A DNA stretch of 64,000 nucleotides, from positions 64,120 to 128,119 of the forward strand of contig JARIGQ010000006.1 of NCBI GenBank assembly GCA_029288775.1. The letters run 5' to 3'. The stretch's first letter is position 1. The number at the start of each line of letters is the position of its first letter. The translations under genes were made by a program, and so were the position numbers. The DNA comes from Candidatus Nomurabacteria bacterium. GTDB lineage: Bacteria; Patescibacteriota; Minisyncoccia; Phycocordibacterales; UBA5272. This document shows positions 60,045-61,820 of the stretch, piece after piece. The notes beneath the pieces were generated by a model, which saw nothing but the letters and a program-made list of their open reading frames with translations, had not been told where the DNA came from and did no database searches.

Positions 60045-61592
60045 AAATAGAGTTTGATCCTAGCTCAGGATGAACGCTGGCGGCGTGGATAAGGCATGCA
60101 AGTCGAACGGAACTAATCGGACGGAAACTTCAAGTGAGTAGCAATACAAGCGAGAGGCGGAAGACCGACAGTTTAGTGGCAGACGAGGTAGTAATATTTA
60201 GGAACGCACCCCGAAGTCACGAATAGCCCACCGAAAGGTGGAGTAATACGTGATGGTCTCGCAAGAGTAAAGATTTATCGCTTCGGGAGCGGCTTAAACA
60301 GTATCAGCTAGTTGGTAGGGTAATGGCCTACCAAGGCTATGACGCTTAGGAGAGGTGAGAGCCTGACCTCCACCGATGGGACTGAGACACGGCCCATACA
60401 CCTACGGGTGGCTGCAGTCGAGAATCTTCCACAATGGACGAAAGTCTGATGGAGCGACGCCGCGTGATCGATGAAGTGCTTCGGTATGTAAAGATCTTTT
60501 ATGAGGGAAGAAGTTTATTGACGGTACCTCATGAATAAGGGCCTGCAAAACTCGTGCCAGCAGCAGCGGTAATACGAGTGGCCCAAGCGTTATCCGGAAT
60601 TATTGGGCGTAAAGGATGTGTAGGTGGTTGTATTAGTCTGGTGTCTAACCTCTGAGCTTAACTTGGAGACAGCATTGGAAACGGTACGGCTAGAGTATGT
60701 TAGGGGTAAGCGGAACTAATAGTGTAGGGGTGAAATCCGTTGATATTATTGGGAACACCAAAAGCGAAGGCAGCTTACTGGAACATTACTGACACTGAAA
60801 CATGAAAGCGTGGGTAGCGAATGGGATTAGATACCCCAGTAGTCCACGCCCTAAACGATGTTCTCTCGCTATGTTGAGTATCGACCCTCAACGTGGCTTA
60901 GCTAACGCGGTAAGAGAACCGCCTGGGAAGTACGATCGCAAGATTAAAACTCAAAGGAATAGACGGGGACCTGCACAAGCAGTGGATTATGTGGTTTAAT
61001 TCGATGGTAAACGAAGAACCTCACCAGGATTTGAAACCCACGTGAAAGCCCTAAGAAATTAGGGCCCTCGCAAGACTCGTGGACAGGTGATGCATGGCCG
61101 TCGTCAGTTCGTGGTTTGAACTGTTCCCTTCAGTGGGGTAACGAACGCAACCCTTATCGCGTGTTACAAGTGTCACGCGAGACTGCCCCGTAATGTGCGC
61201 ATAAACAAGAAATTGTTTGTGAATACATTACGGGGAGGAAGGAGAGGATGACGCCAGGTCAGCATGTCCCTTTGACATCCTGGGCTACACACATAATACA
61301 ATCGGTAAGACAACGGGTCGCGACGGGGTAACCCTGAGCCAATCCTTCAAACTTATCGCCAGTTCAGATTGTGGTCTGCAACTCGACCACATGAAGCCGG
61401 AATTGCTAGTAATCGCGGGTCAGCTAAACCGCGGTGAATACGTTCTCAGGTCTTGTACTCACTGCCCGTCAACTCAAGGGAGCCGGGGGCACCCAAAGGC
61501 TTAGCTTGTCTAGGACTAAGGTGAATTCGGTGACAGGGAGTAAGTCGTAACAAGGCACGGCTAGCGGAAGCTGGTCGTGGATTAATTCAATG
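60045..61592 (+). rRNA. rrs: 16S ribosomal RNA (CPR-type; 3' end lacks the CCUCC anti-SD)
   Basis: AGAGTTTGATCCTAGCTCAG 5' end; GTGCCAGCAGCAGCGGTAATAC; GTCGTAACAAGG...; terminal ...GCTGGTCGTGGATTAATTCAATG instead of ...GGATCACCTCCTT. Confidence 0.9.
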
Positions 61593-61820
61593 TGAAATCG
61601 GTCAACATACCTATTTAATAGGGTGTATGATTCTTGTCGAACTATTGTTTTCAATAGAGGAATTGATAGTGATCCTTAACACTATCCGCGTTACAGCGAA
61701 AGGTAACACAAGTCGCGCAAGCGCTAGAGTGTGACAAAAGAAAGATGTGAAATCTCAATGTGTGTAATGTAATGAAATAGCCCCGATCGCTACGCGATCG
61801 GGGCTTCTCCGTTTTCGGAT

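Follow-up and report, generated by a model that had tools for sequence, protein, structure and literature searches.

The 16S rRNA gene and its transcription unit

The window analysed here, a 64,000-nucleotide (nt) stretch of a Candidatus Nomurabacteria genome (contig JARIGQ010000006.1, positions 64,120 to 128,119), encodes a 16S ribosomal RNA (rRNA) whose 3' tail has no anti-Shine-Dalgarno (anti-SD) motif CCUCC. Rfam model RF00177 matches positions 60042-61592 of the forward strand with 1325.5 bits (the gathering score being 50), over model positions 1-1533 and without truncation, and helix 44 is intact beside helix 45 in the 3' part of that alignment. The gene and the elements around it are as follows:

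59826..59854, + strand: promoter-like site TTGACT-17-TAGAAT of the stand-alone 16S unit (consensus scan, 10/12 matches, sequence only)
59997..60011, + strand: distal 5' leader arm ACATTACACACATTG of the pre-16S processing helix (perfect 15-nt complement of 61756-61770)
60024..60042, + strand: proximal 5' leader arm of the same helix (perfect 19-nt complement of 61725-61743)
60042..61592, + strand: 16S rRNA gene, full length (Rfam RF00177)
61455..61471, + strand: decoding-centre stretch GTACTCACTGCCCGTCA (Rfam alignment against the consensus ACaCACCGcCCGUCA)
61556..61579, + strand: helix 45, intact, with a 10-bp stem and a GGAA loop (Rfam structure alignment, minimum-free-energy fold)
61579..61592, + strand: 16S 3' tail GGAUUAAUUCAAUG (Rfam alignment; the CCUCC-equivalent positions 61585-61589 read AUUCA)
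61586..61596, + strand: predicted tail-trailer hairpin UUCA-AUG-UGAA, joining the former anti-SD positions to the first trailer bases (stem search, minimum-free-energy fold)
61665..61686, + strand: predicted trailer hairpin GAUAGUG-AUCCUUAA-CACUAUC with a conserved GAUCC loop (covarying stems)
61725..61770, + strand: 3' trailer arms of the processing helix, 61725-61743 and 61756-61770 (leader complementarity)
61779..61805, + strand: intrinsic terminator of the 16S unit, a 12-bp stem, 9 of its pairs being G-C, and then a run of T

The tail that follows helix 45 reads GGAUUAAUUCAAUG, whereas the usual bacterial ending is GGAUCACCUCCUUU and the Rfam consensus is GGAUcACCUCCUUu. As CCUCC is replaced by the AU-rich GGAUUAAUUC, canonical pairing between a Shine-Dalgarno (SD) sequence and the anti-SD is impossible. 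A direct string search of 61400-62300, which covers the tail and the 3' trailer, found no CACCTCC, CCTCC or ACCTC, and by this search and the Rfam alignment the single-stranded tail does not carry the CCUCC of canonical SD initiation. An earlier annotation made from the letters alone (hereafter the sequence-only reading) had placed a missing anti-SD at 61560-61600 with no CACCTCC in the next 300 nt, and was right on both counts and in its coordinates. The anti-SD-less 16S is confirmed, and it is due neither to chance nor to an assembly error.

With its own promoter-like site and terminator, the 16S gene appears to form a self-contained transcription unit; no large-subunit rRNA was found by Rfam in the 64-kb window, and no 23S gene follows the 16S. 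The two leader/trailer blocks make up the classical pre-16S processing helix. The distal block differs in sequence yet keeps its pairing in relatives L076, L043 and L114, and the proximal arm covaries in L109 and L038. Because these perfect helices enclose the gene, the stretch from helix 45 to the processing helix is native and free of CCUCC.

Such a tail might also result from wrong assembly, from an insertion between GGAU and CACCUCCUU, or from a dead rrs gene whose functional counterpart lies elsewhere. Insertions are frequent in 16S genes of the candidate phyla radiation (CPR), according to passages of Tsurumaki et al. 2022 (RNA 28:1041; PMC9297842), and the present gene has one of 57 nt around model positions 75-93; moreover, the window is part of a genome. 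However, the full-length match with helices 44 and 45 intact, the uninterrupted leader/trailer pairing around a tail without CCUCC, the intact promoter and terminator, and the same tail in 21 independently assembled species genomes among the matches listed largely refute these explanations, which we regard as very improbable. Likewise, neither an assembly error nor an intron or insertion dividing the tail, the findings by which the sequence-only reading would have been overturned, came to light.

The insertion itself lies at 60110-60170, where 57 nt stand in place of 18 in the Rfam model, a small expansion typical of CPR rRNAs.

Tails of related 16S genes

Relatives of the 16S were collected by scanning one genome per species with the decoding-centre 17-mer GTACTCACTGCCCGTCA, which returned at least 120 loci, about 95 of them real 16S genes and nearly all from Patescibacteria. 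A trial scan of viral contigs with AGTCGTAACAAGGCAC had given only chance matches in phage protein-coding genes, and the 17-mer was used instead. It is a signature common to at least 95 Patescibacteria 16S genes, and its differences from the consensus are presumably A1396U and C1400U, with the E. coli numbering taken from the 1392-1406 primer site. On the same assumed numbering, the C1409-G1491 pair is replaced by A-U in the Rfam alignment (61541-61545 with 61455-61471). The signature would mismatch universal 1392R-type primers.

Among the matches listed, 96 tails (window included) carry the U1396/U1400 signature: 11 have CCUCC, 8 have CCUCA and 77 are without the motif. Exactly GGAUUAAUUC is found in 22 of these 77, again counting the window, and its core AAUU recurs in the large GGAUCAAUUAAAC class. 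The 16S genes of the window class are 88-94% identical to that of the window over about 1 kb, and in a crude neighbour-joining tree they form a clade beside other anti-SD-less groups and apart from the CCUCC/CCUCA group. Given this identity, the shared tail and the clade in the tree, loss of the anti-SD is old and inherited. This agrees with the sequence-only reading, which had called the loss genuine and proposed a comparison with related genomes; that comparison shows the same GGAUUAAUUC after helix 45 in 21 other species among the matches listed.

The relatives also place the host. Those of its arginyl-tRNA synthetase (ArgRS) carry the names Candidatus Paceibacterota or Parcubacteria, and those with the same 16S tail are named Candidatus Nomurabacteria, Paceibacterota or Parcubacteria. 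By these names and by the tree, the host belongs to the Parcubacteria/Paceibacterota within the CPR.

Pairing between tail and trailer

In the tail-trailer hairpin, the paired tail bases are the positions equivalent to 1536-1539. A gapless MAFFT alignment of the tails left the arms out of register, and the hairpin was assessed by an anchored stem search with shuffled-trailer controls. Stems of 4 bp or more occur in 17/17 unique window-class tails, 9/11 canonical tails and 6/8 CCUCA tails, compared with 10-23% of shuffled trailers, although kinship among the sequences inflates these counts. In some relatives UUCCA/UGGAA or UUCC/GGAA replaces UUCA/UGAA, and anti-SD-bearing relatives have an analogous CUCC/GGAG or CCUC/GAGG hairpin at the equivalent place. 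The hairpin is probably a feature of pre-rRNA 3' processing that compensatory changes preserved as another sequence took the place of the anti-SD. The invariance of the tail and its pairing with the trailer indicate that it is still constrained and not decaying freely.

Farther downstream, the stems of the GAUCC-loop hairpin covary in about 10 relatives (GAAAGTG/CACTTTC, AACAGTG/CACTGTT, AATTGGTG/CACCAGTT and others), and the loop UGAUCC(U/A)UAACA is conserved. These related species, about 10 in all, belong to a subclade of the window class to which the hairpin is confined. The loop sequence TGATCCTTAACAC (61670-61682) was considered as a displaced GGATCACCTCCTTA remnant, that is, a relocated anti-SD, but, although part of a hairpin with covarying stems, it is restricted to a subclade and was therefore rejected as a general explanation. 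Further conserved hairpins of the form GUUAC...GUAAC follow, and conservation of the trailer is above that expected of a spacer. In addition, the first bases of the 16S, CTATTAAATAG (60040-60050), complement 11 nt of a trailer hairpin (61611-61621), which is also possible in L076; this may be an alternative pairing of the precursor or a coincidence of near-palindromes.

Start sites of the window genes

To see how genes start, 69 curated window genes were sorted by start class. A strict -10 hexamer was defined as TA[TCG]A[ACT]T ending 5-9 nt before ATG, with 372 internal in-frame ATGs as the control. The classes are:

Strict -10 hexamer (mostly TATACT, often TGnTATACT): 23/69 genes, against 0.8% of internal ATGs
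Coupled, with the start within a few nt of an upstream stop: 11/69 genes
Strong SD-like motif: 5/69 genes; a sixth, with a strict -10 box as well, is listed under that class
Relaxed -10 only: 3/69 genes
Unclassified: 27/69 genes

The spacer between the -10 box and ATG peaks at 6-7 nt. As the box abuts ATG, transcripts would begin on the start codon or right beside it, and this promoter geometry indicates leaderless mRNAs. SD-like 4-mers are not enriched upstream of starts (9% compared with 14% in the in-gene control), and canonical SD use, with the motif enriched 5-10 nt before most starts, is not seen in a gene set where only 5-6 of 69 carry a strong motif. The lack of SD motifs in most genes and the indicated leaderless starts support the sequence-only reading, which had described pervasive leaderless, SD-less host starts. 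Given the -10 geometry and the lack of enrichment of SD-like 4-mers, the mechanism is most likely leaderless initiation on 5'-terminal AUGs together with termination-reinitiation within operons. In the 11 CCUCC-bearing Patescibacteria relatives sampled, SD-like motifs also stand before only about 5% of genes, which suggests that SD use dwindled before the tail changed.

The new tail could instead be an altered anti-SD that pairs with a co-evolved AU-rich leader motif complementary to GGAUUAAUUCA. The tail is invariant over 22 sources among the matches listed, part of it extends to a second tail class (the AAUU core noted above), and positions -22..-5 show an enrichment of about 2.5-fold for ATTAA, TTAAT and AATTA. 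However, that enrichment is weak and is expected anyway near -10 boxes in AT-rich promoter regions, and the tail-complement 5-mers CATTG, TTGAA, TGAAT and AATCC are not enriched. Most genes seemingly have no leader to pair with, and an all-A/U duplex so short would be very weak. We consider an altered anti-SD improbable.

The gene for IF3, infC (39262..39774, - strand; Pfam IF3_N/IF3_C), appears leadered, with a TAGTAT -10-like box about 30 nt upstream (region to 39834). Directly before its first TTG is an in-frame ATT, which recalls the AUU start of IF3 autoregulation in other bacteria.

Residual SD-like motifs

A minority of genes retain SD-like motifs, and the following loci illustrate them:

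17472..18533, - strand: ThyX-like gene, GC 0.60, with AAAGGAG 5 nt before ATG (weak Pfam Thy1 match)
39889-40185: an example of an SD-led gene
57745..57942, + strand: small GC-rich open reading frame (ORF), GC 0.59, preceded by AAAGGAGGTG
62266..62612, + strand: leadered cassette with a -35/-10 promoter, ACGGAGGAG, an 80-aa membrane ORF (62326-62568) and a terminator
63347..63656, + strand: second leadered cassette with TTGACA-17-TACAAT, GGAG, a 69-aa membrane ORF (63404-63613) and a terminator

SD-led genes have a mean GC of 0.54, compared with 0.41 for leaderless genes (Mann-Whitney p = 0.005), in line with the strong SDs that the sequence-only reading had seen on GC-rich genes. The motifs are not confined to the window. 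When 592 ORFs of at least 100 aa were pooled from contigs that physically carry an anti-SD-less 16S, GGAG starts at positions -13..-9 numbered 5, 7, 11, 7 and 7 (37 in total), whereas other positions have about 1.5 each. Among the upstream 5-mers of the window class, AGGAG ranks second in enrichment behind the -10 box, with 18 observed and 3.3 expected. Most of the genes that carry the motif are accessory or lack annotation (14/20 without a Pfam match); they include NUDIX genes twice (L109 and L114), Rpe, GGDEF and isochorismatase. AGGAG, GGAGG or GGGAG stands 5-9 nt before ATG in 5/5 syntenic ThyX-like genes, in leaders that have otherwise diverged, the genomes L135-L138 being counted irrespective of 16S tail status. 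Similarly, the promoter and AACGGAGG of the first cassette are conserved at the same place in L076.

From the above we tentatively propose, with the odds still against it, that a GGAG-type motif at SD spacing is under selection on about 5% of genes and is read by a mechanism independent of the anti-SD. The genes under such selection could include the conserved ThyX-like/dCTP-deaminase/Tmk block and the small promoter-bearing cassettes, and the motif could be read by a protein, by a different site in rRNA or by a CU-rich element relocated to a 3' extension that the rRNA retains.

A rival reading is that SD-like function itself was kept for a minority of leadered genes and is served by one of these readers, for example the GAUCCUU loop of a retained 3' extension. 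The sharp GGAG peak, the excess of AGGAG, the motif kept before the ThyX-like gene, its presence on the NUDIX genes of two relatives and a covarying trailer hairpin that presents AUCCUU in its loop would all fit. But the hairpin occurs in only about 10 of 22 window-class sources and is essentially absent from the other anti-SD-less classes, and its loop pairs with AAGGA but leaves out the GGAG core, which is conserved best. A search of the window for a further anti-SD-like element or CCUCC-bearing RNA gave nothing that stands out: the matches arose by chance or were antisense to SD sites. With few genes concerned and the syntenic genomes counted irrespective of their tails, a retained SD function of this kind is unlikely.

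The sequence-only reading had found strong SDs paradoxical in such a genome and had taken the GC-rich genes that bear them as imported. The paradox is real, as SD-like motifs do occur at the right spacing on native genes, but import does not account for it in the one block tested, that of the ThyX-like gene. Two pairs of genes mark its place:

14120..15244, + strand: nusG (14120-14665) and rplK, encoding uL11 (14831-15244) (Pfam NusG/KOW and Ribosomal_L11)
15364-16503 and 16557-16976: dCTP-deaminase-like gene and dUTPase gene, next after rplK

The block SIMPL-secE-nusG-rplK-[ThyX-like, dCTP deaminase, dUTPase/Tmk]-ArgRS is syntenic in the four relatives L135-L138 with 64-83% identity, and no organism outside Parcubacteria is named among the best 120 homologues of the ThyX-like protein. 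With the motif also kept in 5/5 genomes, recent horizontal import of the SD-bearing ThyX-like block is rejected, and the GC-rich ThyX-like/dCTP-deaminase block is native to the clade. The gene for uL1, rplA, does not follow nusG-rplK in the window or in these four relatives, and no Ribosomal_L1 match was found among the scanned ORFs of the 64-kb window. The genes of deoxynucleotide metabolism (14120-20189; with Tmk in the relatives) are GC-richer than their flanks and occupy the usual place of rplA-rplJ-rplL after nusG-rplK.

The small cassettes adjoin tRNA-Ile(GAU), tRNA-Ile(UAU), transfer-messenger RNA (tmRNA) and the 16S gene, and could be integrated foreign DNA. The 3' end of tRNA-Ile(GAU), TCTTGGTTCGCGCAC (62727-62743), is repeated 190 nt downstream (62917-62935) so as to flank a cassette; with GC-richer cassettes on either side, the repeat looks like the remnant of an attachment site left by integration. 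Two terminator hairpins ACCGCAYGCAAAACCGCGTGCGGTTTTGTTTTT of 97% identity (63308-63341 and 63623-63656) each close one of two adjacent small-ORF cassettes, so that a module may have been duplicated.

Other features of the window

The isoleucyl-tRNA synthetase (22014-25574, + strand, 1186 aa) has a His_Phos_1 domain inserted at residues 547-700 within its catalytic domain, an architecture shared by relative L137. Two tRNA-Ile genes (43462-43535 and 62671-62744, both + strand) have the anticodons UAU and GAU. Bacteria, in which AUA is normally read by a lysidine-modified CAU tRNA, do not usually have a tRNA-Ile(UAU). The tmRNA gene (40299-40686, - strand, 92 bits, with low confidence in the middle part of the alignment) directly adjoins smpB (40688-41122). 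Finally, a 50-nt direct repeat of 80% identity (35802-35851 and 36063-36112, 261 nt apart) lies where the sole ORF is small and without annotation.

Comparison with known systems

In passages of Tsurumaki et al. (PMC9297842), the anti-SD motif was detected in just 48% of Parcubacteria, and its loss overlaps the group that lacks uL1. Anti-SD loss in Parcubacteria has been published there, so that for this clade the core finding is not new. The host resembles the Parcubacteria of those passages in that CCUCC(U) is absent at the 16S 3' end, in belonging to the same phylum-level group, and in having a 16S gene that is unlinked from the 23S and carries an insertion; within the 64-kb window rplA does not follow rplK, which would fit the uL1-lacking group. 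Beyond those passages, the replacement tail, the leaderless promoters and the residual SD-like motifs are details from the present analysis. A search for literature linking CPR or Patescibacteria to leaderless mRNAs found nothing relevant.

Loss of the anti-SD is also documented outside Parcubacteria (PMC10783764), and genomes without it include some Flavobacteriia, insect endosymbionts such as Carsonella and Sulcia, and hemotropic Mycoplasma (Lim, Furuta and Kobayashi 2012, PMC3457768). Like the host, those genomes are small, their CCUCC has degenerated (C-to-U/A there, in all rrs copies) and most of their genes are without an SD signal. Unlike in those groups, where members of one group differ in what replaces the motif (TCTCA, TTTCT, TTTGA and others), the tail here is invariant across many species and paired with the trailer, and the present lineage is not an insect endosymbiont. 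Bacteroidota are similar in that SD use is rare genome-wide (Lim 2012; PMC10783764), but they mostly retain the CCUCC sequence. In leaderless-rich Mycobacterium (PMC4633059) and haloarchaea, as in the window, a -10 box lies a few nt before the start codon and many genes have no 5' untranslated region; however, these organisms keep CCUCC and use SD sequences on leadered genes, whereas here CCUCC is gone. Era, which binds GAUCACCUCC, is absent from most CPR (PMC10582724), removing another constraint on that sequence.

Mammalian mitochondrial mRNAs start at or near the start codon. Their small-subunit rRNA is without an anti-SD (PMC10582724). Unlike the host, these mitochondria are organellar, with dedicated factors and no sigma-70 promoters, and homology of mechanism is without support.

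Discussion

The best explanation of these data, to which we give a probability of roughly 85%, is that the window encodes a functional, stand-alone Parcubacterial 16S rRNA of a large clade that lost the anti-SD long ago, in which most mRNAs are apparently leaderless and the tail remains constrained. Most transcripts would begin without a leader from an extended -10 element of the TGnTATACT type placed 5-9 nt upstream of ATG, and many downstream genes of operons would start by stop/start coupling. The former anti-SD positions, paired with the first bases of the trailer, are proposed to serve 3' processing of pre-16S rRNA.

Several points weigh against this explanation. We infer the mature 16S 3' end, the transcription start sites and the mechanism of initiation from the DNA. 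The evidence spans 64 kb of the genome, and a second rrs copy may lie elsewhere. The start survey leaves 27 of the 69 genes in no class. In addition, about 5% of genes on contigs with an anti-SD-less 16S have GGAG at SD spacing, and the ThyX-like gene keeps an AGGAG-type motif before its start, which a complete loss of SD recognition does not predict.

The anti-SD-less Parcubacterial 16S, already published, by itself confirms that a large, uncultured portion of the bacterial tree can dispense with SD:anti-SD pairing. To this the window adds a picture of what replaced SD initiation, with -10-only promoters that abut start codons and stop/start coupling, together with an invariant, trailer-paired tail and a sharper paradox of conserved SD-like motifs on native genes. 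Gene callers that rely on an SD model will misplace starts in such genomes. The residual conserved SD-like signal in an anti-SD-less lineage is the sole part with real potential for novelty; if these motifs are functional, the lineage would provide a natural system in which SD-like roles can be studied apart from pairing with the 16S tail.

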